Source: an uncultured Gemmatimonadales bacterium | GTDB lineage: Bacteria; Gemmatimonadota; Gemmatimonadetes; Gemmatimonadales; GWC2-71-9 | Assembly: GCA_963779755.1 (NCBI GenBank) | Contig: CAVZZO010000001.1 | Span: 1,248,001-1,312,000, forward strand | Direction of reading: 5' to 3' | Length of the DNA: 64,000 bases | Part shown: positions 25,344 to 46,871 of the stretch, one piece after another | Position numbering within the stretch: the first letter of the stretch is position 1 | How the letters are laid out: every line of letters begins with the position of its first letter | Notes under the pieces: generated by a model | The model's database searches: none | Told to the model about the DNA's origin: nothing | Seen by the model: the letters and a program-made list of their open reading frames with translations, nothing else | Position numbers and translations under genes: made by a program

Positions 25344-25360
25344 CTTCAGCAACTCATCCC

Positions 25361-26182: not shown

Positions 26183-26247
26183 GGATGCGGCAGATCGCCG
26201 CGGGGTGGAGACCAGGGAAATCTAGCGTGCTGCTGACCGGTTGCTAA

Positions 26248-26395: not shown

Positions 26396-26422
26396 GCGGC
26401 TCCGCAGATGACGGAATGACTG

Positions 26423-26962: not shown

Positions 26963-27108
26963 GACGTCATCGTTTGGTCAAATTGTCGGGATCATCGATT
27001 GCCACGACTTCGAAACCGATGCTGCTCAGGCCTTCTTCTCGGATCCGCGCCCCGACTCGGGTGGGCCGGGTCGGCATCCAGGGCTTGCATCTTGGACGTC
27101 GAACTCGC

Positions 27109-27963
27109 CTAGCGCCCCCACATCACCTGGATGTCGCCCACTGCGCTGGTTACGGTGATGTCAAGGTGGTGCGGATGGGCGGCATAGCCCTCGGAGAGAT
27201 AGCGGTCGCCCTGTTTCATGAACCCGCCGGGGTTGAAGCTGGCGAGGAACCGGTCGAGATGGATCGCCACGCCCATGTCCCGGGGCAGCCGCAGGTGCAG
27301 TCCTCCCAGCGCCAGCTTGATGGAGACCTGCACATCCTCTTTCCAGGCGCCGGTCAGATCGAGCCTGACCTCTCCCATCCCCCCCTGGAAGGTGATCTGC
27401 CGGCACCGGCTGTTGCCCAGAGTCGCGGTGGTGAACTCGGCGGCGCCGGCATTGAGGTTGAGAGCCTCGCAGACGGCGGGGTTGGGCCGGGAGAAGCGCA
27501 GCCGCGTCTTGCTCGCAGCGGTGCCGATGGTGGCCTGCCGTAGGCGCAGCCCGCCCAGGTCCAGATCGGCCTCGGCGGCGCCGAGGCTGGCGTCGAGCTC
27601 GAGGGGCACCTGGGGCGAGAGCGCCAGCTCGGCGTGCTGCTGCAGCTGTCTCCGGCTGCTGACCCGGATGCCGCCCCCGCCGGCGCTCTCCAGGCCGAGC
27701 ACTGCCTGGCCGGTGGCCGGGTCATAGCTGGTGAGCGGCTCGAAGCGCTCGGCATCGTAGGTGAGTCGCAGGTCGTACAGCATATCCGAGCGGCTGGCCG
27801 AGACCGACAGGCTCCCCGCCGCAAACTCGATCCGCGCGCGAAGGACGGATTCTCCGTGGTACTGCCGGGCCGCCGTAGCGGTGCGCATCTGCTGGGCACG
27901 CGCCGGGGCTGGTGCCAGGCTTGCGATTGCCGCAACGAGCAACAGACCGCGACACGGAGACAC
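27109..27963 (-). CDS. Exported beta-repeat envelope protein (LiaF/DUF2154-like)
   Basis: Signal peptide; repeated LDL..L, G.G...L units; start uncertain (GTG 27963 versus TTG 28017). Confidence 0.65.
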   Translation of the reverse strand: MSPCRGLLLVAAIASLAPAPARAQQMRTATAARQYHGESVLRARIEFAAGSLSVSASRSDMLYDLRLTYDAERFEPLTSYDPATGQAVLGLESAGGGGIRVSSRRQLQQHAELALSPQVPLELDASLGAAEADLDLGGLRLRQATIGTAASKTRLRFSRPNPAVCEALNLNAGAAEFTTATLGNSRCRQITFQGGMGEVRLDLTGAWKEDVQVSIKLALGGLHLRLPRDMGVAIHLDRFLASFNPGGFMKQGDRYLSEGYAAHPHHLDITVTSAVGDIQVMWGR

Positions 27964-28094
27964 GGAGGCACGGAATAGTGCGGGGCAGGTTCGATAGCTG
28001 CTGGTCCGGTATTTCAAATCATTTCCCTGGTGGTTCTTTCCGTGTGGCTTCCTGTAACCGCTCCGTGTCTCCGTGTCTCCGTGTCGCAGTTAGC

Positions 28095-29669
28095 TCAGAG
28101 CGGAGGTGGGGTTCGGTGGGAGCCCGGGCGCCGGGCGGCGGGCACGCCGAACTGGGGCGTGGCCCACAGATATTCGTCGGTCAGCGCCTCGGCCGGGATG
28201 AGCCGGCCGGCGAAGGACTCGCGCGCGCCGGCGCGGGAGAGCAGCGTCGCGCCGAAGCCGGCCGTCCCCACCACCCAGGTGGCCAGAAAGGCGGACCCCT
28301 TGATCACCGCCCCGGCCACCGGCACCCAGCCGAAGAGGACCCAGGCGGCCCAGAGCACCAGCAGGCCGGCCAGGCCGGTAGCGACGTACCGATAGCTGTT
28401 CGCGGTCGTGATGGCGGCGCCCTGCGCCAGGCGCCGGCGGGTGTAGTTCTCGCCCATGGCGTGGGCCACCGCCAGAAACCCGCCCAGCACGCCGAGGATG
28501 ACCAGCAGGACGTAGACGATCACGGCAAAGGGCAGCAGCAGGACCCCGACCACGCTCAGAATGAGGCCGACCACCAGCATGCCGAAGGTGGGAAGCACCA
28601 GCATCTGGGCGACCAGGCCGGCCAGGAAGGCCCGCCCGAAGGAATGGCTCACGGTATCCGCAACGACTTCGAGATTGGAACGGGCGAAGAGCACCACGCC
28701 GAAGCCGATGACCAGCAGGGTCAGGAATACCCCCAGGAGGCCGGCCCCGTTGCGCAGGATGGCCAGTGGAGCGGAGGGGGCCTGCTCGGCTGCGGGCCGG
28801 GCCGGGGCCGGCTCCGCGCGCGACAGCGTGCGGATCTCTCCCCGTATCTGGCCGCCGGCATTGCGTACGCCGCCGTCGATGGCGAGCGCATCGCCGTCCA
28901 GTACCGCGCCGGTATGAATGATTACATCGCCGTCTACGGTGGCCAGATTGCCGCGCAGCGTGCCGTAGAGATCGGCATTGCCGTGCAGGACCAGGACATT
29001 GCCGGTGAGGGTCTCGTCCGACCCGATGATGTAATCGCCGAAGCGGGCCTGCCCGTTGGGCACCGTCACCCGCAGCCGGTCGGCGGGAACGGCGGCGGCT
29101 TCGCGCAGCTTCGGTTCCAGGCGGGTGGGATTGCTCAGATCGTCCAGGGCGATCGTCAGCCCGCCCTCGGCGGCCGGGGGAACGGGGCGGGCCTGCTGCT
29201 GCGGCGCTCCGGCCGTGAGCCGGGCGAAGCGGGAGCGGATCTTCCGCGCGGCCGGCGCTTCTTCATCGCTCAGGTCGGCCGGTTCCCAGTGCTGCGCGAT
29301 GCTGACGACATCGGGAGTGGCGCGGTGGCCGGCCTCGCGCACCAGCGCCGCCCAGGACGACTCCAGCTCGCCGCCCCGCGCATAATGGCCCACCAGTTCC
29401 TGGTCGATCAGGACATCGCCGTTCGCCAGCGCGATGGCCAGCTCGTGGTCATCTTCCAGGGTGAATCGGAGCGCGGCGGCGGCGGGGGCCAGCGCCACGG
29501 TATGCCCCTGGACATCCAGGGGATCCGGCTGGCCCAGCAGGTGCCGGAGGAACTCGAACGGGATGTGGAGACGGTCGCGGACCGGGCGGTGGCGGTTATC
29601 GGCCCGGAGGGCGCTCGCCGCGCCCGCCACCAGCAGCAGGGCGAGGAAAACCGGTCTAGACGCTCGCAT
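28095..29669 (-). CDS. Membrane protein with bactofilin-like (polymer-forming) beta-helix and C-terminal TM bundle
   Basis: GNVLVLHGNADLYGTLRGNLATVDGDV...GDALAIDG repeats; several TM helices. Confidence 0.75.
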   Translation of the reverse strand: MRASRPVFLALLLVAGAASALRADNRHRPVRDRLHIPFEFLRHLLGQPDPLDVQGHTVALAPAAAALRFTLEDDHELAIALANGDVLIDQELVGHYARGGELESSWAALVREAGHRATPDVVSIAQHWEPADLSDEEAPAARKIRSRFARLTAGAPQQQARPVPPAAEGGLTIALDDLSNPTRLEPKLREAAAVPADRLRVTVPNGQARFGDYIIGSDETLTGNVLVLHGNADLYGTLRGNLATVDGDVIIHTGAVLDGDALAIDGGVRNAGGQIRGEIRTLSRAEPAPARPAAEQAPSAPLAILRNGAGLLGVFLTLLVIGFGVVLFARSNLEVVADTVSHSFGRAFLAGLVAQMLVLPTFGMLVVGLILSVVGVLLLPFAVIVYVLLVILGVLGGFLAVAHAMGENYTRRRLAQGAAITTANSYRYVATGLAGLLVLWAAWVLFGWVPVAGAVIKGSAFLATWVVGTAGFGATLLSRAGARESFAGRLIPAEALTDEYLWATPQFGVPAARRPGSHRTPPPL

Positions 29670-30261
29670 GAGCCACCCGCGCGTTGGGAAGAGTCAGGAG
29701 GCGGCGCAGCGCGAGCACGCCCGTCAGGTAGGCCAGCGAGAGCGATCCCGAGGCCGCCGCCAGCCGGGCGGGCGAGCCGAGGAACGATCGGACGCTGTCA
29801 TACCAGGGTTGCTCGATCACGTTGGAGGCCGCGGTCCGGACCCCGACCCAGAGCCACTCGCCCGCCTGGGAGCCGAGCCATTGGCCCAGCGTGGCCAGGG
29901 TCTCCTGGTGGCCCAGCGTCCAGGCGACGCTGGCCCCCATGGACCCCAGCACGGCGGCGGCCAGACCGGCCGCGACGGCGAGTGACCTGCGGGAGGCGAA
30001 GATCTTCCGGCGAGTGGGCTGGAACGATGGAACCGCGGCGGGCATACCGGCCGGCACCCTGGCCATGACGCGATCGGCGAACCCCGGCCCGGGCGTGAAC
30101 AGGGGCAGCGCGGCCAGCCGGGCCGCCAGCCGCTGTTCCGCCAGGGCGAACTGGTGGCACGGCTCGCAGACGTCGAGATGACGAAGCTTGACCTGGTCCA
30201 GCCGCCCTTCCAGCAGGGCGTCCAGGTCGTCTGAGGTGAGGTGCATCATACCCGGTTCCAT
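29656..30261 (-). CDS. Zinc-finger (ZAS) anti-sigma factor, membrane-bound
   Basis: HLDVCEPC = HxxxCxxC; TM helices; directly downstream of ECF sigma. Confidence 0.85.
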   Translation of the reverse strand: MEPGMMHLTSDDLDALLEGRLDQVKLRHLDVCEPCHQFALAEQRLAARLAALPLFTPGPGFADRVMARVPAGMPAAVPSFQPTRRKIFASRRSLAVAAGLAAAVLGSMGASVAWTLGHQETLATLGQWLGSQAGEWLWVGVRTAASNVIEQPWYDSVRSFLGSPARLAAASGSLSLAYLTGVLALRRLLTLPNARVAHASV

Positions 30262-30273
30262 AGCCTGTGGTCT

Positions 30274-30302
30274 CCTACGAACGGTTCAGGATACAGGTTT
30301 CA
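30274..30302 (-). promoter_or_regulatory. SigW-like ECF promoter TGAAAC-N17-CGTAGG upstream of anti-sigma
   Basis: TGAAAC (30302-30297) includes the sigma stop codon; CGTA at 30279-30276. Confidence 0.65.
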
Positions 30303-30905
30303 TTCGCGCAGGTCCGACAGCAAGTCGCGTAACTCATTGCGTGCCCGGTGGATGTAGGTCTTCACCGTGCCCAGCGGCAGCTCCAGGATCTGGGCGATTT
30401 CTTCATAGGGCCGCCCCTCGACATGCCGCAGGAGAATGCAGGCACGGTATTCGGGCCGGAGCTGCGCGATGGCCTGCTCGATGGCCGTGCCGATTTCCCG
30501 CGCTTCCATCTCCTCCAGCGGCGTCTCGCCGCGGTCGCTCAGTTGCAGGGAGGTCGCCTCGACCGCGTCCGGCGTCGCGGCATGGGGCGAGCCCTCCAGC
30601 GAGAGCGTATTCAGCTCCCGACGCCGCAGATGATCGATGGCCGCGTTGTTGGCGATCTTGAAAATCCAGGAGGAAAACTTGAACTCCGGCCGGTAGGACT
30701 CGATGGCGTTCAGCGCCTTGATGAAGGTCTCCTGCGCCAGGTCCTCGGCCAGTTCCCGGTCCCGCACCATGCGATAGATGAGACTGAACACCGGGCGCTC
30801 GTACCGGCGGATGAGTTCCCGGTACGCTGCCTCGCGGCCCTGCCGCGCCAGGACGACGATCTCCTGGTCGGTCGCCCCCGCGAGATCCGCCCGGGCGTCA
30901 GCCAC
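30300..30905 (-). CDS. ECF RNA polymerase sigma factor (SigW/RpoE-like)
   Basis: AEDLAQETFIKA, FSSWIFKIA.N..ID.LR, YEEIA..L.LPLGTVKT.IHRAR. Confidence 0.95.
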   Translation of the reverse strand: MADARADLAGATDQEIVVLARQGREAAYRELIRRYERPVFSLIYRMVRDRELAEDLAQETFIKALNAIESYRPEFKFSSWIFKIANNAAIDHLRRRELNTLSLEGSPHAATPDAVEATSLQLSDRGETPLEEMEAREIGTAIEQAIAQLRPEYRACILLRHVEGRPYEEIAQILELPLGTVKTYIHRARNELRDLLSDLRE

Positions 30906-30958
30906 GGCGCCGGCTCACGCTTGCGAAGCCGGTTCCGGCCCGGCTACATTCGCGCTCG

Positions 30959-31708
30959 ATGTCGGCCTCGGAAAACAGGTTCGCTCTCGCCGGCGGCGCG
31001 GAAAAGCGGCGGTACGTGCGGGGCATGTTCACCGCCATTGCCCCCCGTTACGATCTCCTCAACCATGTGCTCAGCCTCAACGTGGACCGCCGCTGGCGGC
31101 GCCAGGCGGTGGGGCTTCTGGAATGGGAGCGCGCGCCCCGCGGGGTGTATCTGGACCTCTGTGCCGGAACCCTCGACCTCGCCGCCACCCTGGCCGGCCG
31201 GCCCGGGTTTGCCGGACGGGTGGTCGGGGTGGATTTCGTGCTGCCCATGCTCGAACTCGGCCGCGGGAAATCGAGCCGGGTGGAGCCCCTGAACGGCGAT
31301 GCGCTCGAGCTGCCCTTTGCGGATGCCTCCTTCGACGGCGCCACCGTCGGATTCGGCGTGCGGAACCTGGCGGACCTCGATGCGGGGTTGCGCGAGGCGG
31401 CGCGCGTGCTGCGCCCGGGCGCCCGGCTGGTGATCCTGGAGTTCACCACGCCCCGCTTCTGGCCGCTCAAGGCCATGTACCTCTTCTATTTTCGTCGGAT
31501 CCTGCCGTGGATCGGCCGGCTCGTGTCGAAACATACGACCGCCTATACCTACCTGCCAGAGTCGGTATTGTCCTTTCCCGGCCCTGACGAACTGGCGGTG
31601 AAGATGAACACCGCGGGCTTCGAAGGGGTGCAGTATAGATTGCTGTTCGGCGGGATCTGTGCGCTGCATGCCGGGACCAGGAACCAGGGACCAGGCACCC
31701 AGGGATAA
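30959..31708 (+). CDS. menG: Demethylmenaquinone methyltransferase MenG/UbiE
   Basis: MF..IA.RYD.LN, LDLCAGT.D, GFGVRN, RVLRPG, AY.YLPES. Confidence 0.93.
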   Translation: MSASENRFALAGGAEKRRYVRGMFTAIAPRYDLLNHVLSLNVDRRWRRQAVGLLEWERAPRGVYLDLCAGTLDLAATLAGRPGFAGRVVGVDFVLPMLELGRGKSSRVEPLNGDALELPFADASFDGATVGFGVRNLADLDAGLREAARVLRPGARLVILEFTTPRFWPLKAMYLFYFRRILPWIGRLVSKHTTAYTYLPESVLSFPGPDELAVKMNTAGFEGVQYRLLFGGICALHAGTRNQGPGTQG

Positions 31709-31775
31709 GGCCCATCCGAACTTCCTGAGTTCTGGTTCCTGTCCCTGGTCCCTGATCCCCGATTCCTGATCCCTT
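31672..31775. repeat. Inverted degenerate heptamer arrays (GGGACCA/GGAACCA)...(TGGTCCC/TGATCCC)
   Basis: Left arm encodes the menG C-terminus GTRNQGPGTQG. Confidence 0.75.
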
Positions 31776-31795
31776 CAATCCTTCATTCCTTGCTC

Positions 31796-33283
31796 ATGGC
31801 CCTCGACTCAACCCGCGAGTTCCTCGACGCCATTGACGGGATCGGAGAGCTGGTCCGCATCTCCTTCCCCGTGCGCACCCGGCTCGAGATCGCCGAGATT
31901 GCCGACCGCTGCATGAAGAGCCCGGGCGGGGGGCCGGCCCTGCTGTTCGAGCAGGTGATCCAGGACGACGGCCGGCGCAGCGCCATGCCCGTCGCGATCA
32001 ACCTCTTCGGTTCCATGCGCCGCATGGAGCTGGCCCTGGGCGTGACTGCGCTGGACCATATCGGCGAGCGCATCGAGGCCATGCTGGACCTCAAGGTGCC
32101 GCAGGGCCTCCTGGGCAAACTGTCCATGCTGCCGCGGCTGGCGGAGATGGCCAAATTCCCGCCCCGTACCCGGAGCCGTGGGGCGGCACAGGAGGTTCTG
32201 CGGGATGCGGACGTGGATCTGTCCCGCATTCCCGCGCTCACCACCTGGCCCCAGGATGGCGGCCCCTATCTGACGCTGCCCATGGTCATCACCACCGATC
32301 CGGGAACAGGCTCCCGCAACGTGGGGATGTACCGGGTGCAGGTGCTGGGGAAGGACACGCTGGCCATGCACTGGCAGCGGCACAAGGTGGGCGCCGCCCA
32401 CTGGCGCGCCATGGCCGCACGGGGCGAGAAGATGCCGGTCGTGATCGCGCTGGGGGGCGATCCCGCCTGCGTCTATTCGGCCAGCGCGCCGCTTCCGCCC
32501 GGCATCGACGAGTTCCTCTTCGCCGGGTTTCTCCGCCGGAGCCCGGTGGAGCTCACCCGCGCGCTGACCTGTGAGCTGGAGTATCCCGCCGGGAGCGATA
32601 TCGTGCTGGAGGGTTATATCGATCCGGCCGAGGACCTGGTGCTGGAAGGCCCGTTCGGCGACCACACGGGGTTCTACTCGCTGGCGGACTACTATCCGAA
32701 GGTGCATGTCACCGCGATGAGTCTCCGGAAGGACCCGGTCTATATCGCGACGCTGGTGGGCCGTCCTCCCATGGAGGACTATTACCTGGGCCATGCCACC
32801 GAGCGGATCTTTCTCCCGCTGCTCAGGCTCACCCTGCCCGAGATCGTGGATTACCACATGCCGGCCGCCGGCATCTTCCACAACCTGGTCTTCGTCGCCA
32901 TCGACAAGCAGTACCCCGGGCAGGCCTGGAAGGTGATGAATGCCCTCTGGGGGCAGGGGCTCATGTCGCTGGCCAAGGTGCTGGTCGTCGTGGACCGCGA
33001 GGTCAACGTCCGCGACCCCGACGAGGCCTGGTGGGTGGCGCTCAACAATATCGATCCCGAGCGCGACGTCCGCTTCACCATGGGGCCCATGGACGTGCTG
33101 GATCATGCCAGCCGGGCGTTCACCTACGGCAGCAAGATGGGGATCGACGCCACCCGCAAGTGGCCCGAAGAGGGCTTCACCCGGGAGTGGCCCGAGCGAA
33201 TCGAGATGGACGGCGAAACGAAGGCCCGGGTGGATGCGATGTGGGAGAAGCTGGGCATACGGCTGCCAGACGGTGAGCGGTAA
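31796..33283 (+). CDS. ubiD: UbiD-family decarboxylase (menaquinone biosynthesis, MqnL-like)
   Basis: PALLFE, NLFGS, NVGMYR, EGPFGDHTGFY, LDH, KMGIDAT. Confidence 0.93.
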   Translation: MALDSTREFLDAIDGIGELVRISFPVRTRLEIAEIADRCMKSPGGGPALLFEQVIQDDGRRSAMPVAINLFGSMRRMELALGVTALDHIGERIEAMLDLKVPQGLLGKLSMLPRLAEMAKFPPRTRSRGAAQEVLRDADVDLSRIPALTTWPQDGGPYLTLPMVITTDPGTGSRNVGMYRVQVLGKDTLAMHWQRHKVGAAHWRAMAARGEKMPVVIALGGDPACVYSASAPLPPGIDEFLFAGFLRRSPVELTRALTCELEYPAGSDIVLEGYIDPAEDLVLEGPFGDHTGFYSLADYYPKVHVTAMSLRKDPVYIATLVGRPPMEDYYLGHATERIFLPLLRLTLPEIVDYHMPAAGIFHNLVFVAIDKQYPGQAWKVMNALWGQGLMSLAKVLVVVDREVNVRDPDEAWWVALNNIDPERDVRFTMGPMDVLDHASRAFTYGSKMGIDATRKWPEEGFTREWPERIEMDGETKARVDAMWEKLGIRLPDGER

Positions 33284-33286
33284 GCG

Positions 33287-34255
33287 GTGAGCGGCCAGCG
33301 GGATCTCGGGCCCGGCTCCGGCGCTCCCGGTGAGCGGCCGCTCCCCGCTCCCCGCTCCCCACTCCCCCGCGAGGGCCAGACCTTCGGCGGCGCGTCGCTG
33401 CTGGTGCGCTACGCCAATTTCGTCAAGCTGCCGCACACCCTCTTCGCGCTGCCCTTCGCCCTGCTCGGGTTGCTGGCCGCGAGCCGCCGGGCGCCGGTCA
33501 CCTGGCGGGACATTGCCCTGGTGGTGGTGGCGTTCTCGGCGGCCCGGTGGGTCGCCATGGGCTTCAACCGCATCGCCGATCTGGAATACGACCGCAGGAA
33601 TCCCCGGACCCGGGCCCGGGAGCTCCCCCGCGGCGCGCTCACTCTGGGGCAGGCCTGGGGATCGGTCCTCGTGGCCGCGGCCCTCTTCGTGGCTGCGGCC
33701 GGCCTGCTCAATCCCCTCTGTCTCCGGTTGAGCCCGCTGGCGCTGGCCTGGATCACCTCCTACAGCTTTGCCAAGCGCTTCACCTGGTGGCCCCACCTCT
33801 GGCTGGGCCTGAGCCTGGCGATCGCCCCGGTGGGCGGCTATCTCGCCGTTACCGGCCGCTGGAGCACGCCCTGGTGGCTGCTGGCAGCGATCACCGTTGC
33901 GGTGGCGGCGTGGGTGGCCGGCTTCGACATCTTCTACGCCCTGCCGGACCACGAGTTCGACCGTGACGCGCAGCTGCGCAGCGCGGTGGTGCGCCTGGGC
34001 GAAGGGGGCAGTATTCTGCTGGCCAAGCTGCTGCACGCGATTACCATCCCCATGCTGGTGCTGTTCGGCTGGGGCGCCGGGTTCGGCGCCTGGTATTACC
34101 TCGGGGTGGCGCTGGCCGCCGGGATCCTGGTCTGGGAGCACCGCCTGGTGCGCCCCGGTGACCTGTCCCGGCTGGATGCGGCTTTCTTTACCATGAACGG
34201 GGTCATGTCGGTGACGGTGTTTGTGTTCGCGCTGATCGACCGGATGGCGCGATGA
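33287..34255 (+). CDS. ubiA: UbiA-family polyprenyltransferase (MqnP-like)
   Basis: HTLFALPFA, AMGFNR..D...D..NPRT..R, YS..KR, GFDIFYA..D. Confidence 0.92.
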   Translation: MSGQRDLGPGSGAPGERPLPAPRSPLPREGQTFGGASLLVRYANFVKLPHTLFALPFALLGLLAASRRAPVTWRDIALVVVAFSAARWVAMGFNRIADLEYDRRNPRTRARELPRGALTLGQAWGSVLVAAALFVAAAGLLNPLCLRLSPLALAWITSYSFAKRFTWWPHLWLGLSLAIAPVGGYLAVTGRWSTPWWLLAAITVAVAAWVAGFDIFYALPDHEFDRDAQLRSAVVRLGEGGSILLAKLLHAITIPMLVLFGWGAGFGAWYYLGVALAAGILVWEHRLVRPGDLSRLDAAFFTMNGVMSVTVFVFALIDRMAR

Positions 34256-34257
34256 AC

Positions 34258-34300
34258 AAGGGGACCAGGGACCGGGAATCGGGAACCAGGACCCCCAGCC
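34258..34300. repeat. Degenerate heptamer array (GGGACCA/GGGAATC)
   Basis: agggaccagggaccgggaatcgggaaccagg immediately after ubiA stop. Confidence 0.7.
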
Positions 34301-34400
34301 CCCGCCCCGGTTCCTCCCCCAGGGTCAAACCGCGGCCGGTGGCCCCGCCGGCGCCCCCGAAGCACCCGGTGAAGACGCCCACGCCCAACCGGAGAGGTCA

Positions 34401-34985
34401 ATGAGCGATCTGCCCCTGGTGCTGGCCGTGACCGGCGCGTCCGGCGCGCCCTACGCCGTGCGACTGCTGGAGGTGCTGGCCGGGAAGCGCGTTCCCGTGT
34501 GGCTGCTGGTGTCGAGCCATGGATGGCGCCTGCTGGCGGAGGAATGCGACATCAGGGATGACGCCGCCCTGCGGCAGGCCACCGGCGGCGACTGGTCGTC
34601 CATCACGCTCTTCCCCGACAACGACCGCGGCGCACTCCCCGCTTCCGGTTCCCGGCGCACCCGCGGAATGGTGATCTGCCCCTGCTCCATGGGCACCGTG
34701 TCCGCCGTGGCGCACGGCAGCAGCCGCTCCCTGGTGGAGCGCGCCGCCGACGTGACGCTGAAAGAGGGCCGCAAGCTCATCCTGGTACCGCGGGAAACCC
34801 CGCTCTCACTGGTGCATCTGCGGAACCTGACGGCCGCCGCCGAAGCCGGTGCCACCATCATCCCGGCCGCACCCGGCTTTTATCACCGGCCGCAGGCGAT
34901 CGCGGATCTGGTGGATTTCATCGTCCAGCGGATCCTGGACCACGCAGGTATCGAGGCCCAGATGAGCAAACGCTGGGAGGGATAG
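34401..34985 (+). CDS. ubiX: Flavin prenyltransferase UbiX
   Basis: TGASGA.Y, ASGS, PCSM.T, RAADV.LKE.R.L.LVPRETP, PGFY. Confidence 0.95.
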   Translation: MSDLPLVLAVTGASGAPYAVRLLEVLAGKRVPVWLLVSSHGWRLLAEECDIRDDAALRQATGGDWSSITLFPDNDRGALPASGSRRTRGMVICPCSMGTVSAVAHGSSRSLVERAADVTLKEGRKLILVPRETPLSLVHLRNLTAAAEAGATIIPAAPGFYHRPQAIADLVDFIVQRILDHAGIEAQMSKRWEG

Positions 34986-35029
34986 ACGCCCTCTTTTCTC
35001 TTTCCTCTTTTCCCTTTTCTCTCGTTTTC

Positions 35030-35509
35030 GTGCGCCTCGGCATCCTCTCCGATACCCACGGGCTGCTCCGGCCCCAGATCTTCGACGTCTTCAGCGAAGT
35101 GGACCGGATTCTCCACGCGGGGGACGTAGGCCCGCCCGAGCTACTGGAAGAACTGGCGGCCATCGCGCCGGTCACCGCGGTCTGGGGGAACACCGATGGG
35201 TGGGCCATCCGGGAGCGGGTGCCGGAAGTCGTGGCGCAGCGGATCGAAGGCCTGGATTTCGTGCTGGTGCACGGCCACCAGCTCGGCGCTCCCACTCCGG
35301 AGGCGCTGCACCGGCAGTACCCCGGAGCGGAGGTCATCGTCTACGGCCATACCCACCGGCCCCTGCTCACCACGGTAGACGTGGTCGTGACGGTGATGAA
35401 TCCCGGCGGCGCCGGCCACCGGCGCTTCAACCTGCCGGCCAGCGTGGGGATCATGGAACTGGAGGCGGGGCTCCCGCCCCGGGCGAGACTGGTGCCGCTG
35501 GAGGGGTGA
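35030..35509 (+). CDS. YfcE-type metallophosphoesterase
   Basis: SDTHG, HAGD, GNTD, HGH, GHTH, NPG. Confidence 0.9.
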   Translation: MRLGILSDTHGLLRPQIFDVFSEVDRILHAGDVGPPELLEELAAIAPVTAVWGNTDGWAIRERVPEVVAQRIEGLDFVLVHGHQLGAPTPEALHRQYPGAEVIVYGHTHRPLLTTVDVVVTVMNPGGAGHRRFNLPASVGIMELEAGLPPRARLVPLEG

Positions 35510-35539
35510 GAAGCGAGAACCGCCTTCCCGCCTTCCCGC

Positions 35540-37900
35540 CTACAGCCTGAAGAGATAACTCAGTTTGGCAAAGAAACTGTCGTCGGTCCGGTCGAGCCGC
35601 CGGAAGGCAAACGCGTCCTGATCGGTGAGATCGCTGCCGTATCCGGCAAAGAAGACGGTGCCGGGCACCGGCTGGTAGCTCAGCAGCAGATCGAAGTGCA
35701 GCAGGTTGCTGGCGCTGGCCGTCGAGCGAGCCAGGCCGCCGGGGCCGGCAATGAGAATGGGCGCGTTGGTGCGGGAATCGTCCCGTAGCGAGTCGGTCTG
35801 CTGCTGGACGTACTGCCCCACCAGGCGGACGAAGAGCGGCCGGCTCAGCTGGTACTCGAGCCTGGTGCGCAGGACCCGCCCCACGCTGACCAGGCTGCCG
35901 TCGGTGGGCCGGTTCACCTGCTGCCAGTTATAGCTGACGTCGGTCCGGAGCCGCCCGGTCGGGCGGTAGGAGAGGCTCAGGTTCAGGAGCTTGAGATCTC
36001 CCGACGCCCATTCGCTGAAGTTTTCGTCGTGCCCCTGCAGAAAGAACCCGTTCGCGCTGAAGTGCTTCCATTGCGGGGTGCCCACCTGCACGAGGTACTC
36101 CCCGTTGTGGATGGTGGGCTGCCCGGTGAAGGGGATGGTGTCGAGCCCGCCCCCCGCCGCCGGCACCTCCAGGCGGTAGCGGGAATACAGTGCGGAGTCG
36201 TAACCGAACGACTCGATGAAATAGCCCGCTCCCACATTCCAGCCGCCGCGCAGAGCCGCGTTCGCGTTCAGGTGCAGTTTCTGGTCCTGGATGTTGCGCC
36301 CGTGGATGAAGTGCTGGTATTGCCAGATGCCGTCCAGCACCACGTCGCCCGTGAACCGCTCCAGGAAGGCGCCGGGCCCGCCATAGACAGTGTAACTCGG
36401 ATCGACGTACGAGTGGACGATACCGGACCGGCCGATGAACCCGCTGGAGGTCTGGAAATCGTCGGAGATGCCGGCGAACAGGCTCCGCAGGCCCCAGGCC
36501 CGGCCGCGAATCAGGAACTGGCCCAGCCAGAGCGGCGCGGTGGTAGTGCGGCCGGCCGCGCGGGTATGGCTGCCGGCCACCTGGAAGTTGAGACTGTAGA
36601 TCCGGCCGAACACCAGGCGGCCGTCGACGTCGGCGACCCGGTTGAAGTCGTTACCGTCGATCCGGTCGGTGTAGGCCACGCCGATTCTCGAGGTGGCGCC
36701 CACGCTCCGTTGCAGCCGCAGGATGTTGAAGACCGGATGGTCCTTTCCCGTGGCCGAGGCGAACCGCTCATCCACGGCGGACAGCAGCCCGATATCCGCC
36801 CCGCCCAGGGAGCCGGTGAGCTTCACCGCCGCCACCGGTTGCACGATGCGCCGGGTGTAGATCAGGTTCTGCGGGACCTGGAACAGCTCGCTCGCTTCCA
36901 GGAAAAAGGGCCGCTTCTCGGCAAAGAAGAGCGCCTGGCGCGGGTCGAACGCGAGCTGCCCGGCATCCGACTCCACCTGCGAGAAATCCGGCTTGACCGA
37001 GCCGTTCAGCGTCAGGCTGTTGGTGACTCCCCAGCGGACGTTCCCGCCCCACTGCGGCATCCCGCCGGCATAGTCATACCCGGCCGCCCCGGGCATCCCG
37101 CTCACCTTGGTGGTGACCTCGGGGTTGAGGTCCATGACCAGGCCCCGATGCAGCCCGGTCAGCCCCAGCAGGGTGCCGGACTGCCCCAGGAACGTGGCGT
37201 CGGCGCGCTGGGCCGGGAACCAGGAGTCCTCGAACCCCGAGTGCTTCACCTCCCGCACCACATTCAGGCTCCAGTCCTGCGTGCGGTCTTCCTGATACCG
37301 GAAGCTCTTGAAGGGAATGCGGATCTCGACCTGGTAGCCCCAGGGCGTGACCTCGCCCTTGGAGCTGTAGACGAAATCCGGGTTCAGATCGGCCTGCTCG
37401 CGCCCCACCACCGCGCCCCCGATGAAGCCGCTGGCGGTCACGTTGGTGCCCTCGACCAGGGTGCCGTCTCCCTGGACGCCCAGCGGATTGACCGCAAACA
37501 GGAGCGCCTGCTTGCCGTCGTGCAGCGGGCCCAGGAGAATCTGAATGTTATCGTCGCTGAAGATCTGGTCGCGGTTTGCCAGCGTCGCCGTGGGCCGGCC
37601 ATGCAGTTCCCAGGCGCGAATCCCGAAGTAGATGGCGGTGGGAGAATACCACACCAGCACCTGAGTGGAATCGGCCGCGGGGATGCCGTCGTTCGGTGCG
37701 TACTGCGAGAATCCCGTCAGCACCGCCGCCCGGGCCCAGGCGTCCTCGGTGAGCCGGCCATCGACGGTCACGTCGGCTTCCACCCGCGGCAGCCGCACGT
37801 CCAGCTGGTGCGCCCGGCCGGAATAGACCGACGGCGGCGCGCCGCCGGTTACCGGTGATGTGGCGACAGTCTGAAACAGCGCCAACCAGGCCAGCAGCAT
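35540..37900 (-). CDS. Exported CBM9-like / DUF5916 outer-membrane protein
   Basis: VDG.L.E..W, F.VNP.GVQ.D, E.RIPF, PDFSQVE.D, EKRPFF.E, C-terminal KLSYLFRL. Confidence 0.85.
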   Translation of the reverse strand: MLLAWLALFQTVATSPVTGGAPPSVYSGRAHQLDVRLPRVEADVTVDGRLTEDAWARAAVLTGFSQYAPNDGIPAADSTQVLVWYSPTAIYFGIRAWELHGRPTATLANRDQIFSDDNIQILLGPLHDGKQALLFAVNPLGVQGDGTLVEGTNVTASGFIGGAVVGREQADLNPDFVYSSKGEVTPWGYQVEIRIPFKSFRYQEDRTQDWSLNVVREVKHSGFEDSWFPAQRADATFLGQSGTLLGLTGLHRGLVMDLNPEVTTKVSGMPGAAGYDYAGGMPQWGGNVRWGVTNSLTLNGSVKPDFSQVESDAGQLAFDPRQALFFAEKRPFFLEASELFQVPQNLIYTRRIVQPVAAVKLTGSLGGADIGLLSAVDERFASATGKDHPVFNILRLQRSVGATSRIGVAYTDRIDGNDFNRVADVDGRLVFGRIYSLNFQVAGSHTRAAGRTTTAPLWLGQFLIRGRAWGLRSLFAGISDDFQTSSGFIGRSGIVHSYVDPSYTVYGGPGAFLERFTGDVVLDGIWQYQHFIHGRNIQDQKLHLNANAALRGGWNVGAGYFIESFGYDSALYSRYRLEVPAAGGGLDTIPFTGQPTIHNGEYLVQVGTPQWKHFSANGFFLQGHDENFSEWASGDLKLLNLSLSYRPTGRLRTDVSYNWQQVNRPTDGSLVSVGRVLRTRLEYQLSRPLFVRLVGQYVQQQTDSLRDDSRTNAPILIAGPGGLARSTASASNLLHFDLLLSYQPVPGTVFFAGYGSDLTDQDAFAFRRLDRTDDSFFAKLSYLFRL

Positions 37901-37980
37901 GGCGTGAGCGTCTCCGAGAGGGGTGATGCAGCGAGGAACATCGGCACCGGTCCGGTGGGCGCGCCGACGGATCTCCGGCT

Positions 37981-38009
37981 CCTACGCAATCAATGGCATG
38001 CGGGATTCA
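37981..38009 (-). promoter_or_regulatory. SigW-like ECF promoter TGAATC-N17-CGTAGG upstream of DUF5916 gene
   Basis: Read on minus strand: TGAATC 38009-38004, CGTA 37986-37983. Confidence 0.55.
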
Positions 38010-38040
38010 GGCCACGCCTCACGTCTTACCTCCTCACTTC

Positions 38041-39138
38041 TCACGTCCACTCCTCCAGCGCCACCGTCCTCCGGTTGGCTCCCGGGTGCTGCCGGAACCA
38101 GGACATCACCAGCAGGATCTCATCCAGCTTCTCGGAGCAGAGCGAGTGTACCTCCGGCGGCGGCTCGGAACGCTCGTCGGCCACTACGGCGCGGAAGGCC
38201 TCGCGTTCGATCGGCGTGGTGGGATAGGGATAGGTGGCGCGAACCAGCCCCCGGCGGATGACATAGGCCCGGTCGTCGCCGAACTCGCCCGGATCGCGAT
38301 AGACGAAGCTCAGCAGGTCCAGCGCAGTCCGGGTCCGGGTGAGGGCCGCCAGCAGCCACTCCAGCGCCTCGAACTTTTCCCGCCAGAGGGCTGCGCGCTC
38401 GAAATCGTGGCCGCCGGCGTGCACCTGCATCTGGTCGACGATCCGGCCGACCGGCTCGATGGTGCGCCCCTCGAAGAAGGCCTGGGCGGTGCGGAACCGG
38501 GCCAGATAGTCCTGCTCCGTCACCAGGCCGGCGCAGGGCCCGGTGCAGGTGCCGAAGTCGTAGCGCAGGCACCCGGCGCGGCGTGGCGGCGCGAAGAGAT
38601 CCATCTGGCCGGCAAAGACGATCGGCATGTCGGCCGCGCAGTCCCGCAGGCCCAGCAGATCGTTCAGCACCCGCACGCCCCGGCCCACGCGTTCCCGTGA
38701 CGTGAAGGGTCCGAAACACTGCAGGTCCTGCGTGCCCCGGCCGGCGCCAAGGGCCAGCCGGGGCGCGGCCCCGCCCTGCATGCGGACGAAGGTCAGGCGC
38801 CGGTGACGGTTGAGGCTGCGGTTGAAGCTGGGGCGGTAGCGATGGATCGCCCGCATTTCACCCAGGTAGGCGGCGAATTCGCTGGGGACGTAGGTCCAGG
38901 CGATGTCGGCGGACGCCTGGAGGATGCGTGCCGCCTTGTCCTCGGGGTAGCGCGCCCGGAAATAGCTCAGCAGGCGATTGCGCAGGCGCCGGGCCTTGCC
39001 CACATAGATGACCCGGCCGGCTGCGTCGGTCATCCGGTAGACCGCCGGCCGGTTCTCGGCCAGCTTGCTCACCCGGTGCCGGAGCGCCGGCAGGTCGGCG
39101 GCGGGAAGCGGAAGGGCGATGGCCGCGCGACGGCTCAT
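38041..39138 (-). CDS. UvrC N-terminal-like (Cho-like) GIY-YIG nuclease
   Basis: PAVY...IYVGKA..LR.RL.SYF, Cys cluster, UVR coil FERAA..R; ATGA overlap with mutM. Confidence 0.85.
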   Translation of the reverse strand: MSRRAAIALPLPAADLPALRHRVSKLAENRPAVYRMTDAAGRVIYVGKARRLRNRLLSYFRARYPEDKAARILQASADIAWTYVPSEFAAYLGEMRAIHRYRPSFNRSLNRHRRLTFVRMQGGAAPRLALGAGRGTQDLQCFGPFTSRERVGRGVRVLNDLLGLRDCAADMPIVFAGQMDLFAPPRRAGCLRYDFGTCTGPCAGLVTEQDYLARFRTAQAFFEGRTIEPVGRIVDQMQVHAGGHDFERAALWREKFEALEWLLAALTRTRTALDLLSFVYRDPGEFGDDRAYVIRRGLVRATYPYPTTPIEREAFRAVVADERSEPPPEVHSLCSEKLDEILLVMSWFRQHPGANRRTVALEEWT

Positions 39139-39959
39139 GACTGACAACGGTAACAGAAAACCGTGCTGCGGGCATCAATGTCGTGGGTCGAGACCAGCCT
39201 GGTTCCGCAAACCCGGCAGGGCTCTCCCTCGCGACCGTACACGAAGAGCTGGAGCTGGAAGTTGCCGGGCTGGCCGGTGCCGGTGCGATAATCGCGGAAG
39301 GTGGTGCCTTCCGCGTCGATGGCCGCCCGCAGAATCCGCCGGGTATGCCGGTAGAGCCGCCGGTATTGGTCGCCGGTGACCTGATTCGCCGGCCGGGAGG
39401 GGTCGATACCCGCGGCGAAGAGCGCCTCGTTGGCGTAGATGTTTCCCACCCCCACCAGGTGCTTCTGGTCCATCAGCACCTTCTTGATGGCCGCGCGGCT
39501 CGCCGAGAGGGTCCGGCGGAATGCCGCGGCGCTGAAGCCGGAGTCCAGCGGCTCGGGGCCCAGCCGCGCGGTATAGGCCTCCCAGCCGGCCTGATCCAGC
39601 AGCAGGATGGTGCCGAGCCGGCGGATGTCGCGAAACACCAGCACGCGGCCGTCGTCCATGGCGGCCTGGAGTACGGCGTAGCGCCGGGCCTCGGGCTTCA
39701 GGGGCCCGGAAAGCACCAGCAGATTACCGGTCATGCCCGGCTGGAGAATGAGAAATCGCTCGCCCAGATCGAACACCGCGTGCTTGGCCCGGCGGAAGAG
39801 GCCGCGAACCACCGCTCCGCGCAGCCGGGTCGCCAGCCGGCGGCGCGTGATTCCCCGCAGCACGTCTTCATGCGTGAGTCGCACCTGCTCGAATCTCCGC
39901 CCCACGACCAGCGGGCGGAGATCGCGTACCATGGTCTCGACTTCGGGAAGCTCAGGCAC
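39135..39959 (-). CDS. mutM: Formamidopyrimidine-DNA glycosylase
   Basis: PELPEVE N-terminus (GTG 39959), RRAK, GMTG, GVGNIYA.E, C..C...C..CQ zinc finger. Confidence 0.97.
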   Translation of the reverse strand: MPELPEVETMVRDLRPLVVGRRFEQVRLTHEDVLRGITRRRLATRLRGAVVRGLFRRAKHAVFDLGERFLILQPGMTGNLLVLSGPLKPEARRYAVLQAAMDDGRVLVFRDIRRLGTILLLDQAGWEAYTARLGPEPLDSGFSAAAFRRTLSASRAAIKKVLMDQKHLVGVGNIYANEALFAAGIDPSRPANQVTGDQYRRLYRHTRRILRAAIDAEGTTFRDYRTGTGQPGNFQLQLFVYGREGEPCRVCGTRLVSTHDIDARSTVFCYRCQS

Positions 39960-40114
39960 ACCGGAAGAGTAATAAGGACTGAGGTCCTTTCGGCTCCCGC
40001 GCGCGGCGCTCGGTCCAGGGTGCCGGCTCCGGCAGCACCGATACCACCCTGCCGCCCCCCCCATTCGGTGGTGCCTGCGCCGGCCCCGGCCTTCGCCCCG
40101 GCGGTAGCTTCCCG

Positions 40115-40173
40115 CTCAGTCCTCAGTCCTCAGTCCTCAGTCCTCAGTCCTCAGTCCTCAGTCCTCAGTCCTC
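40115..40173. repeat. Perfect tandem heptamer (CTCAGTC)x8
   Basis: Counted 40115-40170 plus a partial unit; abuts cupredoxin stop. Confidence 0.95.
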
Positions 40174-40581
40174 CTACGGTGTCACCGTAATCGTTCCCAC
40201 CATACCGGGGTGGATGGTGCAGTGATAGGTATAGGTCCCTGCGGCGGTGAACTTGAAGGTAAAGCGCCCCTGCGGAGGCAGGACACCGGAGTCGAAGAGG
40301 CCGTTGTCCTCGTGCAGATGATGGGTAACGCCGCTGACACCGCCGTAGGCGCCGGAGCTGAAGTCGCCGTTGTACCAGGTCACGCTGCCATCGGACAGCT
40401 TCACCTGGAAGTTGGCGGGGGAGAACGCGGTGGTGGTGAGCGTGGACGCGCCATTCACGACGGTGACGTCCGGAGTGGGGCCGGGATCGGTCGAGCTCTT
40501 GCACTGGGTGAGGAGGAGGCCGGCAATCGGGAGGAACAGCGCCGGCTTGAAGATGCGAAACAACTTGTACGAGATGTGCAT
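40174..40581 (-). CDS. Cupredoxin/plastocyanin-like lipoprotein
   Basis: Lipobox-like LLTQC; VTW.N, upstream His, YHCTIHPGM type-1 copper loop. Confidence 0.85.
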   Translation of the reverse strand: MHISYKLFRIFKPALFLPIAGLLLTQCKSSTDPGPTPDVTVVNGASTLTTTAFSPANFQVKLSDGSVTWYNGDFSSGAYGGVSGVTHHLHEDNGLFDSGVLPPQGRFTFKFTAAGTYTYHCTIHPGMVGTITVTP

Positions 40582-40652
40582 GGAGACATCCGGTTGATGG
40601 TCTCCAATCTGCACACGGCGGGATTCACGCGACAGCGTAAAAGTACGGAACC

Positions 40653-41933
40653 TCAGCCCTTGCTCGTCACCCGCTCTGCCTCCCGCCATCCGATATCCCG
40701 GCGGAAGATCCTGCCGTCATAACTGATTGCCTCAGCGCCGGCGCGGCTCTGCTGCTGGGCCTCGGAGAAGGTGGACCCGACGCCGGTAACGGCCAGCACC
40801 CGGCCCCCGGCCACCCGCAGGACGCCGGCGTCGTCTCTCGCGGTGCCGGCGTGGAACACCAGGAGCGCGGGCGGAAGGCCGTCGGGGATGGTGATGGCCG
40901 CGCCCTTCTCGGGCTTTTCCGGGTAGCCGCGGGCGGCGAGTACGGTGGTAACCGCGGCGCCCGGGTTGGTGGCGAGCGGAGCCGGCGCCCGTCCATGGGC
41001 AATGGCGATCATGGCCGACAGGAGCCCGCCGCGCACCAGCGGCAGCACTGCCTGCGCCTCGGGGTCGCCCAGGCGGCAGTTGAACTCGACCACCCGCAGG
41101 GCATCCCGCGAGCCGATCATGAGGCCGGCGTAGAGCACGCCCGCGAAGGGGCAGCCGTCGTGGGCCATCTGCACCAGGGTGGGCTGGATGATCTCGCGGC
41201 CCGCCCGCTCCAGCAATCCGGGGGTAGCGATCGACACCGGGCTGTACGCGCCCATCCCTCCGGTATTGGGTCCGCAGTCTCCTTCGCCGATGCGCTTGTG
41301 ATCCTGCGCCGCGGGGAGCAGCACGTAGTCCTGGCCGTCGGTGAGGGCGAAGACCGACAGCTCTTCGCCTTCCATGAACTCCTCCACCACGATCTCCTGG
41401 CCGGCATCGCCCATGGCGCCGCCCAGCATGGCCTCGGCCGCCTGCGCCGCCTCGGCGCGCGAGGCGCAGACCAGCGCGCCCTTGCCCGCGGCCAGCCCCG
41501 AGGCCTTCACTACCAGCGGCTCGGGATGCCGGTCGATCCACGCCCGGGCTTCTTCCAGCCGGCGGAAGCTCCGGCTGCCGGCTGTCGGGACGCCGGCGCG
41601 CTGCATGACTTCCTTGGCGAACGACTTGGAGGCTTCGATGCGGGCGGCCGCCGCGCTGGGCCCGAAGACCGGCCGGCCTTCGGACTGCAGGCGGTCCGCC
41701 AGCCCCAGTGCCAGGGGAACCTCGGGGCCGACGACCGTGAGATCGATGTCGTACTCCGCGACGGCGGCGACCAGGCGGGCGATGTCGTGGGCGGGAACAG
41801 GAAGATTGGTGGCGAGGAGGGCGGTGCCGGGGTTACCGGGAGCGCAGAAGAGTTGGGCCGAGGGGTCGTCGCGACGGAGGGCCCAGAGCAGCGCATGCTC
41901 CCGGCCCCCTCCCCCGATTACCAGGATCTTCAC
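40653..41933 (-). CDS. purD: Phosphoribosylamine--glycine ligase
   Basis: GGGGREHAL, GPE.PL, GLAAGKG, QDHKR, NTGGMGAY, EFN.R.GDPE. Confidence 0.98.
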   Translation of the reverse strand: MKILVIGGGGREHALLWALRRDDPSAQLFCAPGNPGTALLATNLPVPAHDIARLVAAVAEYDIDLTVVGPEVPLALGLADRLQSEGRPVFGPSAAAARIEASKSFAKEVMQRAGVPTAGSRSFRRLEEARAWIDRHPEPLVVKASGLAAGKGALVCASRAEAAQAAEAMLGGAMGDAGQEIVVEEFMEGEELSVFALTDGQDYVLLPAAQDHKRIGEGDCGPNTGGMGAYSPVSIATPGLLERAGREIIQPTLVQMAHDGCPFAGVLYAGLMIGSRDALRVVEFNCRLGDPEAQAVLPLVRGGLLSAMIAIAHGRAPAPLATNPGAAVTTVLAARGYPEKPEKGAAITIPDGLPPALLVFHAGTARDDAGVLRVAGGRVLAVTGVGSTFSEAQQQSRAGAEAISYDGRIFRRDIGWREAERVTSKG

Positions 41934-42946
41934 TTCTTCTGCGCGTTGCGGAAGGCCTCTCCCACCTTCTCCGCGGCCCGTTTGGCGGCGTCCACCACCT
42001 GGCCGGCGGCCTGGCGCGCCTCGCGGGCATAGTAGCCGCCCGCTTCTTTCATGTGGTCGCTGATCGGCCGCTCGGCCGTACCCGGTCCCCGGCGGGGATA
42101 CTCACCCCGGAGGATGCGGTCGTAATCGCCGGCCGCCAGCCACTGCTGCAGCTCCGCCGCCCGAACGGTGTTCATCGGATGCGTCAGCCCCAGGGTGTTG
42201 ATCACCTTATACACCAGCGCCAGGCCGTCACTGGCCTCGTTGTATTCGTGCGCCTGGCGCATGAAGGCTTCCACGTTCATGTGGTCGTTGAAGCCGATCT
42301 CCCGGCCGCCGCCGGCCATGGTCATGAGCAGCTTCTGCGCCGCGACAACGTCCTGGCTGCCCAGCAGGCCGGCCCGGTCGGCCGATAGCTCCGATTTCCG
42401 GGACCATTCCAGGAAGGCCAGCTTGAGCGGCAGCAGCGCCAGTCCGGCCAGCATGGGCAGCGCGGCGACACTCACCACCGCCAGGATAGCGGCGATGGTG
42501 CGGTAGAAGGCATGGCCGCTGATCACGTGCCCCATCTCGTGGGCCAGGAGCACGCGCAGCTCGTCTTCGTGCAGCATCTCCAGCGCCGCCGAATGCAGTA
42601 CGATGAACGGATCGTCCATGCCGTAGGCACCGGCATTGAAGACCGGCGTCTGGGAGATGTAGAGCTCCGGCACCCTGGGCCAGTCGAACGTGGTACAGAC
42701 TTCCACGTGCAGCATCCAGACCTTGGGAAACTGCTCCGGCCCCACCCGGACCGCGTTCCCCTGAAACAGAAGCCGGATGCCCTGCTCGCCGCCCAACAGG
42801 GCCACAATCTTCCGGATGACGTCCTCAAAGCCGGGAAGACTCCGCAGGCTCTGCAGGGCTGCCCGGTCGGCCGGATGCTCCCAGCTGACCGGGGCAATGT
42901 CTGGAAAGGTGCGTCGCGGCCGGGCCGCGGGCGTGGTGGTTGTCAT
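41930..42946 (-). CDS. M48-family zinc metallopeptidase
   Basis: WEHPADR, NA, AHEMGH, ELSADRAG, THP. Confidence 0.9.
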   Translation of the reverse strand: MTTTTPAARPRRTFPDIAPVSWEHPADRAALQSLRSLPGFEDVIRKIVALLGGEQGIRLLFQGNAVRVGPEQFPKVWMLHVEVCTTFDWPRVPELYISQTPVFNAGAYGMDDPFIVLHSAALEMLHEDELRVLLAHEMGHVISGHAFYRTIAAILAVVSVAALPMLAGLALLPLKLAFLEWSRKSELSADRAGLLGSQDVVAAQKLLMTMAGGGREIGFNDHMNVEAFMRQAHEYNEASDGLALVYKVINTLGLTHPMNTVRAAELQQWLAAGDYDRILRGEYPRRGPGTAERPISDHMKEAGGYYAREARQAAGQVVDAAKRAAEKVGEAFRNAQKK

Positions 42947-42974
42947 GGCGACTGCTCTGGTTGAGGTGCGCAGC

Positions 42975-43002
42975 CCTACGTTGGGCTCCCGCACTAGTTT
43001 CA
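42975..43002 (-). promoter_or_regulatory. SigW-like ECF promoter TGAAAC-N16-CGTAGG upstream of M48 peptidase
   Basis: TGAAAC 43002-42997, CGTA 42980-42977. Confidence 0.65.
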
Positions 43003-43012
43003 GCCTGTAACG

Positions 43013-43069
43013 GGTGAGGCGTAAGGCGTAAGGGGTGCTGCGGTTACGTCTTACGTCTCACGTCTTACG
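43013..43069. repeat. Inverted heptamer arrays (GCGTAAG)n...(CTTACGT)n
   Basis: gtgaggcgtaaggcgtaagg...ttacgtcttacgtctcacgtcttacg; last unit contains the upstream gene's stop. Confidence 0.75.
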
Positions 43070-44231: not shown

Positions 44232-44399
44232 GTAACCCGTGGCTGGAGGTGAAGATCCGGCGGTGAGGAAGGTTAGGCCCGGTGCAGACGGGCGGCAAGC
44301 TGCCGGGGAGGAGTCTCCTGGGCCCGGCGGCCCGTGACGAGGCGCCGGGCCTGCGGGACTCTCATTGAAGAAGCGCCCCATCCTGAGTAGGTTCGCCCT

Positions 44400-46850: not shown

Positions 46851-46871
46851 AAAGGCTGAAGAGGACAGATC

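Follow-up and report, generated by a model that had tools for sequence, protein, structure and literature searches.

A likely SigW-type promoter and envelope-stress regulon in Gemmatimonadota, with a conserved site at the sigma stop codon and a candidate small RNA

The sigma factor of the extracytoplasmic function (ECF) type encoded at 30300-30905 of the DNA analysed here (the window: 64,000 nucleotides (nt) of an uncultured Gemmatimonadales bacterium, GCA_963779755.1, contig CAVZZO010000001.1, positions 1,248,001 to 1,312,000) has its closest described counterpart in SigW of Bacillus subtilis (group ECF245). According to excerpts of the papers cited here and below, the SigW regulon includes pspA, ABC transporters, proteases, and non-coding RNAs (PMC3498285), and the -35 element is contacted by the SigW residues T168, K170, T171, R172, H174, and R175 (PMC6713349). 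Members of ECF245 come from Bacillales, have a DisA/YbbR gene context, and are paired with an anti-sigma that carries a zinc site, one transmembrane helix, and a fused bactofilin domain (PMC7826278). Promoters for an anti-sigma alone are also on record: in Corynebacterium glutamicum SigH drives rshA alone, sigH being read from housekeeping promoters (PMC3489674), and the P3 promoter of Escherichia coli rseA is a sigma-dependent promoter serving only the anti-sigma (PMC8595263). Two further groups bear on the comparison, namely ECF247 of the Chloroflexi, with a two-helix anti-sigma at +1, a bactofilin at +2, and no conserved promoter motif reported in the excerpt (PMC7826278), and ECF25, in which subgroup ECF25s4 is the Gemmatimonadetes one and the motif given in the excerpted ECF survey, GGAAC/GTC, refers to other subgroups. 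Literature searches outside subscription papers returned no description of such a sigma, regulon, or RNA in Gemmatimonadota, and the main text of PMC11109978 contains no Gemmatimonad term.

The motif YGAAAC-N16/17-CGTA-n-G is likely to be the promoter read by this SigW-like sigma, which would thereby control an envelope-stress regulon that much of the phylum Gemmatimonadota has kept. In the window, the pattern TGAAWC-N15-18-CGTA has exactly three matches against 0.07 expected, a number reached in none of 100 shuffled windows, and all three lie on the minus strand where the initial annotation had placed them (Table 1). Their description as intergenic holds for sites 2 and 3 and not fully for site 1, the TGA of which doubles as the stop codon of the sigma (30302-30300). 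Site 3 lies 30 nt from the M48 ATG (42946), and site 2 is the weakest of the three, with a score of 16.4 on the matrix described below. Among 65 orthologous sites, a G directly follows CGTA in 36 and stands one position further on in 55, so that the fixed extended -10 CGTAGG initially proposed turns out to be only one variant; this form occurs five times in the genome, three of them inside the window. At the anti-sigma site, the GGAG that follows CGTA also resembles a Shine-Dalgarno sequence.

Raw matches to TGAAWC-CGTA with N16 and N17 number nine and eight in the 4.23-Mb genome, the average over 20 other spacers being 4.5. The enrichment resides in the position relative to genes. When genes were called with a simple hexamer model (3548 genes), the scoring matrix was built solely from the sites of 29 relatives, and a promoter position was defined as at most 200 nt 5' of a same-strand gene, 14 of the 23 matches scoring at least 15 at N16/17 stood in promoter position, compared with 18 of 148 at 16 other spacers; at a score of at least 20, all eight matches were intergenic.

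Conservation was counted in the 29 best relatives per gene. The site downstream of the sigma is present in all 29, starting on the TGA stop (offset 0) in 23, and in every one of them AAC and CGTA are unchanged and equally spaced. Of 80 loci from across the phylum, 74 have a site 3' of the sigma, coinciding with the stop codon in 51 and displaced from it in 23 (wrong-spacer control, 2). These counts bear on the suggestion that site 1 merely reflects the succession of a TGA stop and a Shine-Dalgarno sequence and that the other two sites are chance matches, which could draw on TGA being the stop in 74 of the 80 loci, on GGAG following CGTA at many anti-sigma starts, and on raw counts only twofold over background. 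It is highly improbable and effectively refuted: besides the invariance just described, the motif is kept at the 23 displaced sites, which indicates that the motif and not the stop codon is what is conserved, and the orthologues of M48, TolC, and PspA carry it with neither stop codon nor Shine-Dalgarno sequence. Upstream of M48 the site is found in 20 of 29 relatives under the strict pattern and in 26 with one mismatch allowed (one of them probably spurious). For the DUF5916 gene the figures are 3 and 11 of 29, all among the 15 closest relatives and mostly reading CGAAAC, and none was seen at the 14 weaker homologues, which may be paralogues. The conservation at orthologous regions put forward as a check was thereby found for all three targets, and the proposal of an envelope-type regulon comprising the anti-sigma unit, M48, and DUF5916 gains support.

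The sigma itself has regions 2 and 4 only, as expected for the ECF type (group 4), and scores 120.8 bits against TIGR02937 (cut-off 42.9). Its best NCBIfam match is SigW, at scores below the two SigW equivalog cut-offs (151 < 209 and 136 < 243 bits), and its best PDB match is SigW as well (5wuq). It keeps T168, K170, T171, H174, and R175 of the SigW -35 contacts, R172 being replaced by Y, and an orthologue of 66-83% identity occurs in 58 of 60 relatives; the relatives of the sigma are Gemmatimonadota. Together with the conserved sites and their co-occurrence with the sigma clade, these contacts favour the SigW-type promoter assignment and this sigma as its most likely reader.

That co-occurrence is seen at several distances (handles beginning with G, C, and L are ours for genomes, contigs, and loci). 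In other classes, two orthologues of 45% identity show the site on the stop codon, one of them with CGTT and a low score, and five more distant ECFs have no site at the stop; among 80 metagenome ECF loci, a downstream site accompanies 14 of 17 at an identity of at least 42% as against 1 of 60 below it. The site therefore belongs to the SigW-like clade, being frequent at close ECFs and rare at distant ones. Summed over 61 genomes, the strict pattern gives 286 matches vs 29 for reversed-pattern controls, and over fifteen genomes of other classes 61 vs 65, a 47% orthologue being present in two of the five tested. Genome G059 (98% complete) has no sigma orthologue: it has lost the sigma block from an otherwise intact menG locus, and its M48 gene, two TolC genes, and pspA all lack a site upstream. 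Its locus L242 (G059:C30) does not contain the block that lies between the Mrp-like gene (window about 15600-16700) and menG and that comprises the sigma unit; two motif-like matches in the region were discounted because they fall within a gene of opposite orientation. Five further genomes chosen for low motif counts included four with no sigma (three in the genus of G059, plus G199), and the five sigma-less genomes together gave 25 matches vs 28 controls, i.e. no enrichment. G001 was dropped as a sigma-less control because its contig ends inside the sigma start.

Table 1. Predicted features of the window and the candidate RNA locus (window positions unless a contig handle is given)
Feature	Position	Strand	Remarks
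Site 1, TGAAAC-N17-CGTA-GG	30274..30302	-	predicted anti-sigma unit promoter; core 30302-30276, GG to 30274
Site 2, TGAATC-N17-CGTA-GG	37981..38009	-	82 nt 5' of DUF5916 gene; core 38009-37983, GG to 37981
Site 3, TGAAAC-N16-CGTA-GG	42975..43002	-	between metB-like gene and M48; core 43002-42977, GG to 42975
ECF sigma, SigW-like (sigma2 + sigma4), 201 amino acids	30300..30905	-	PF04542 (r2) + PF08281 (r4_2)
Putative zinc-binding anti-sigma, 201 amino acids	29656..30261	-	HxxxCxxC; NCBIfam anti-sigma match below cut-off
Membrane protein, second gene of anti-sigma unit	28095..29669	-	four C-terminal hydrophobic stretches; no Pfam match
LiaF-like C-terminal domain protein, third gene of unit	27109..28017	-	PF09922, 29.7 bits (cut-off 29)
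DUF5916 protein	35540..37900	-	PF19313; outer-membrane location only as a label of the initial annotation
M48 (HtpX-like) metalloprotease	41930..42946	-	PF01435; HtpX models below cut-off
purD, possible read-through member only	40653..41933	-	GARS domains; start overlaps M48 stop by 4 nt
Candidate RNA, about 100 nt	C1 about 328742-328840 (with promoter 328708-328840; L092:209-345)	+	site, fold, no conserved ORF (open reading frame)

The position of the junction site has consequences for the wiring of the circuit. No autoregulatory site was found within 400 nt upstream of the sigma, so that only the downstream one is present, and across the phylum a site 5' of the sigma occurs in 15 of 76 loci, many of them Longimicrobiales-type (wrong-spacer control, 1). 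Since the -35 element usually reuses the TGA stop of the sigma, the predicted promoter would mostly drive the anti-sigma unit alone and not the sigma. The distance from CGTA to the anti-sigma ATG is 11-13 nt at 26 of 58 loci and 14 nt here, and transcription is expected to start 6-8 nt past CGTA. If it does, the ECF-driven anti-sigma message would be nearly leaderless, and the GGAG would serve the joint sigma/anti-sigma message. In C. glutamicum SigH/RshA and at E. coli rseA P3, by comparison, the starts lie 62-66 and 228 nt 5' of the anti-sigma, inside the sigma gene (excerpts of PMC3489674 and PMC8595263), unlike the arrangement here, in which the -35 element is formed at the stop codon and the predicted transcript is almost leaderless.

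The predicted regulon exceeds the window, and its best-conserved targets lie outside it. Strong sites precede a TolC-HlyD-ABC exporter (C3:558758), a run of seven small ORFs with a CesT-like gene and a PspA gene (C3:726583), a bifunctional penicillin-binding protein (PBP; C3:1402283), a PAS-Fis protein (C1:60986), TetR and S41 peptidase genes (C1:1430976), and a 72-amino-acid membrane protein (C3:923465). The 119 strict sites of 18 of the 61 genomes fall before TolC in 14 genomes, the anti-sigma in 13, M48 in 10, the 72-amino-acid protein in 7, and leaders of the PspA operon in 6, with DUF5916 behind a strict site in one; furthermore, a site scoring at least 15 lies within 4.3 kb before pspA in 14 of 19 further sigma-bearing genomes, as against 1 of 19 for each of the two wrong spacers tested. 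The seven tandem ORFs (C3:723061-726488, minus strand, L093) encode proteins of 81-117 amino acids, several of them alike, each with a hydrophobic stretch and with no Pfam match. The transglycosylase-transpeptidase PBP (C3:1397962-1402251, minus strand, L096) has two WYL/WCX (PafBC-like) genes behind it. Five strict sites of G035 (L123, L127, L134, L137, and L140) lie 5' of short genes for putative PadR-like regulators.

The second-best site of the genome (C1:328708-328734) is followed by no ORF and precedes a candidate RNA (Table 1), which is flanked by a gene for a thioesterase/alpha-beta hydrolase and, in convergent orientation, a ferredoxin gene. Its promoter reads CGTA-C-G, the full consensus, and the -35 element here also uses the TGA stop of the upstream gene. 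Eight of 30 ferredoxin loci share this layout: behind the same promoter come a 5' hairpin that varies, a CU-rich linker, a long 3' hairpin whose loop is conserved, and a tail of pyrimidines (z from -1.3 to -4.8). A covariance model trained on the eight cores, with the promoter left outside the model, finds a match in 47 of 140 family genomes (E at most 0.01, the last ten or so weak); by family of the order, the RNA occurs in 20 of 56, 0 of 57, and 0 of 27 genomes, i.e. in none of the 84 of two sister families. Among the top 30 loci, YG(A/C)AAC-N16/17-CGT(A/C) stands shortly upstream in 28 and with one mismatch in the other two. At 23 loci outside the training set, changes on both sides were seen at 10 of 13 pairs, a figure reached by none of 500 shuffles, the loci having been chosen with a model that contains the stem and the kin not being independent. 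In 17 of 29 loci there is no ORF of at least 10 codons, and none is shared among the 29; searches of Rfam with nine and eight loci gave no match at gathering score except four tRNAs at L191, the others being weak chance matches with E up to 10. A short loop pattern, tried as a search key, showed no enrichment over the control and was uninformative.

Whether such an RNA would act by pairing with messenger RNAs is an even call, this mode being favoured over a protein decoy, a plain terminator, or something else. The CU-rich linker could pair with ribosome-binding sites, resembling as it does the 16S anti-Shine-Dalgarno tail in all 29 main copies scored. It is unlikely that the conserved hairpin simply terminates transcription of the hydrolase and ferredoxin genes, which converge on it, as its position and the pyrimidine tail at its end could suggest, together with the simple GC hairpin found there in relatives that lack the RNA and the choice of homologues with a model holding the stem. 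A terminator is at odds with the conserved loop (CGCGGCC...AGTAC-like) and CU-rich linker in 29 of 29, with the ECF-type promoter upstream in 28 of 30, with the separate terminator-like hairpin that adjoins the RNA in this genome, and with G-U pairs that favour the promoter's strand. It is also at odds with six second copies elsewhere (L435-L438, L440, and L442), each placed, by eye, behind a different ECF-type motif, YGCAAC-N16-GCAT(C/T)(C/T), which is also found upstream of another ECF gene here (C1:993425). Several of these second copies repeat GCAGT(A/T)C two to four times and have no CU-rich linker (by eye). This feature fits a transcript in which repeats of the word GCAGU(A/U)C bind and titrate a protein, in place of pairing with mRNA leaders, as do the presence of the word in the loop of 22 and also in the linker of 8 of 29 main copies (relaxed pattern) and the finding of no Hfq; the conservation of the linker in the main copies speaks for pairing instead, no candidate protein for titration was identified, and the decoy is given a low probability.

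It has to be noted that a number of observations weigh against the proposed regulon, its reader, and its RNA arm. The raw genome-wide motif count is only about twice the background; of the targets in this genome, PAS-Fis is found again in 1 of 18 genomes and PBP and TetR in none; the sigma-less genomes represent at most two independent losses, four of the five having been picked for low counts; G213 has the sigma yet gives 3 matches vs 4 controls; the last four bases of the promoter are CGTC instead of CGTA at 21 of the 28 RNA loci, for which reason another ECF may read them in relatives; and in the RNA target prediction the best, 10th, and 50th duplex energies over the 3548 called starts (-38.6, -35.5, and -32.3) fall within the range of 12 shuffles. 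The genome also carries about 20 other ECFs, among which (20 aligned) C1:2361920 alone likewise keeps five of the six SigW contacts, with S for T171. These paralogues, one of them tied on the contact residues, could speak for a real ECF promoter that is read mainly by another sigma or shared by several ECFs, as in B. subtilis for SigM, SigW, and SigX; overlapping recognition is indeed documented for CGTA/CGTC promoters (excerpt of PMC5758882), and a second ECF-type motif, TGCAAC-N17-CGTCTA, stands before two genes in promoter position (C1:586771, minus strand, and C3:1669301, plus strand), most RNA promoters being hybrids of the two motifs. The two genes encode likely exported proteins. Such a reading is nevertheless improbable, since among the 21 sigma genes scanned in the genome only the one at 30300-30905 has a full site within 400 nt and since the site tracks the SigW-like clade, not other ECFs, and disappears with the sigma.

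In the mechanism proposed for the SigW-like sigma, its gene would be expressed from a different kind of promoter and the protein sequestered by the putatively zinc-binding anti-sigma with its two helices, from which membrane damage would free it, possibly by proteolysis as for RsiW. The freed sigma would transcribe the TolC-HlyD-ABC exporter, the PspA operon, M48, small membrane proteins, and DUF5916, and the stop-codon site would raise the anti-sigma unit only, providing negative feedback without the usual positive loop. The full-consensus site ahead of the RNA of about 100 nt would add a predicted non-coding arm in this genome.

The putative anti-sigma has two predicted transmembrane helices, with hydropathy peaks at residues of about 94 and 167. 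The zf-HC2 domain is above cut-off in two of six orthologues tested and not in the window protein, and HxxxCxxC occurs in 38 of 58 scored orthologues (73 loci given, an ORF obtained from 58). It is missing in the other 20, in some via frameshift or mis-called starts (L373, L376, L379, L381, L384, L391-L394, L397, and L399 are among the motif-less ones), and some Longimicrobiales-type anti-sigmas have two zinc fingers. The bactofilin-like label first given to the 28095..29669 protein is not borne out by Pfam and is only a lead from its Atlas neighbours, which carry DUF8173 in 15-26% of members or Bactofilin in 12-14%. On the other side of the sigma stands menG-ubiD-ubiA-ubiX, a divergent unit (menG/ubiE first) 53 bp away (window 30906-30958), and a TTGCGA-N17-CTACAT-like element pointing at menG recurs in relatives (by eye). 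The order metB-M48-purD-mutM is common to G057, G037, and the sigma-less G059. A scan of window 25000-44500 for sigma-70 promoters and terminators stayed at chance level. Phosphoglucosamine mutase-like and GlmS-like genes (labelled by eye) lie at window 45480-48701 on the plus strand, 15 kb from the sigma; these families also flank SigW in ECF245, here probably by coincidence.

Set against the described systems, the locus resembles SigW/RsiW in its predicted TGAAAC/CGTA promoter and five of six -35 contact residues (PMC6713349, PMC5758882) and in an adjacent, putatively zinc-binding membrane anti-sigma with pspA, ABC transporter, protease, and non-coding RNA targets (PMC3498285, PMC7826278). 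It differs in that SigW is autoregulated from an upstream site and here the site is at the stop codon of the sigma, in the outer-membrane channel targets, the extra conserved G two bases past CGTA, the sub-cut-off score, and the phylum; in contrast to ECF245, the anti-sigma is a two-helix protein of 201 amino acids, any bactofilin-like part being in a separate gene. Because taxon, anti-sigma build, gene context, and autoregulation differ, the sigma is predicted to work like SigW but is not an ECF245 member. With ECF247 it shares a predicted two-helix anti-sigma at +1, and the +2 protein, with no Pfam match of its own, has Bactofilin only among its Atlas neighbours; the phylum is again different, and the likeness concerns the described build. 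For the candidate RNA, the sigma-E-dependent small RNAs MicA and RybB are a general precedent. The short RNAs FoxI and FoxJ of Fusobacterium, placed under an envelope-stress ECF promoter (excerpt of PMC11005410), are alike in the ECF-type promoter; for the present candidate, a predicted RNA, there was no Rfam match at gathering score and no Hfq was found.

Judged from these comparisons, this would be a known kind of system, in which the new elements are a conserved feedback-only variant and an unlisted small RNA candidate, and the surprise is moderate because the circuit logic has precedents. A fuller account, held with somewhat better than even confidence, is that Gemmatimonadota possess a phylum-wide SigW-like system whose key promoter, placed in the sigma stop codon, is invisible to upstream-only surveys, and that one family has gained a small RNA arm that is undescribed and apparently works without Hfq, with second copies in some genomes under the control of another ECF, and that acts via an anti-Shine-Dalgarno linker or GCAGU(A/U)C repeats. 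This suggests that ECF promoter surveys limited to upstream DNA may miss sites at sigma/anti-sigma junctions, e.g. in ECF247 and other groups for which no motif was reported. If expressed, the RNA would represent a new small RNA family in a lineage with no detectable Hfq. For an abundant soil phylum, the predicted sites provide a concrete envelope-stress regulon, in which several unannotated membrane proteins would be tied to PspA, TolC, and M48.

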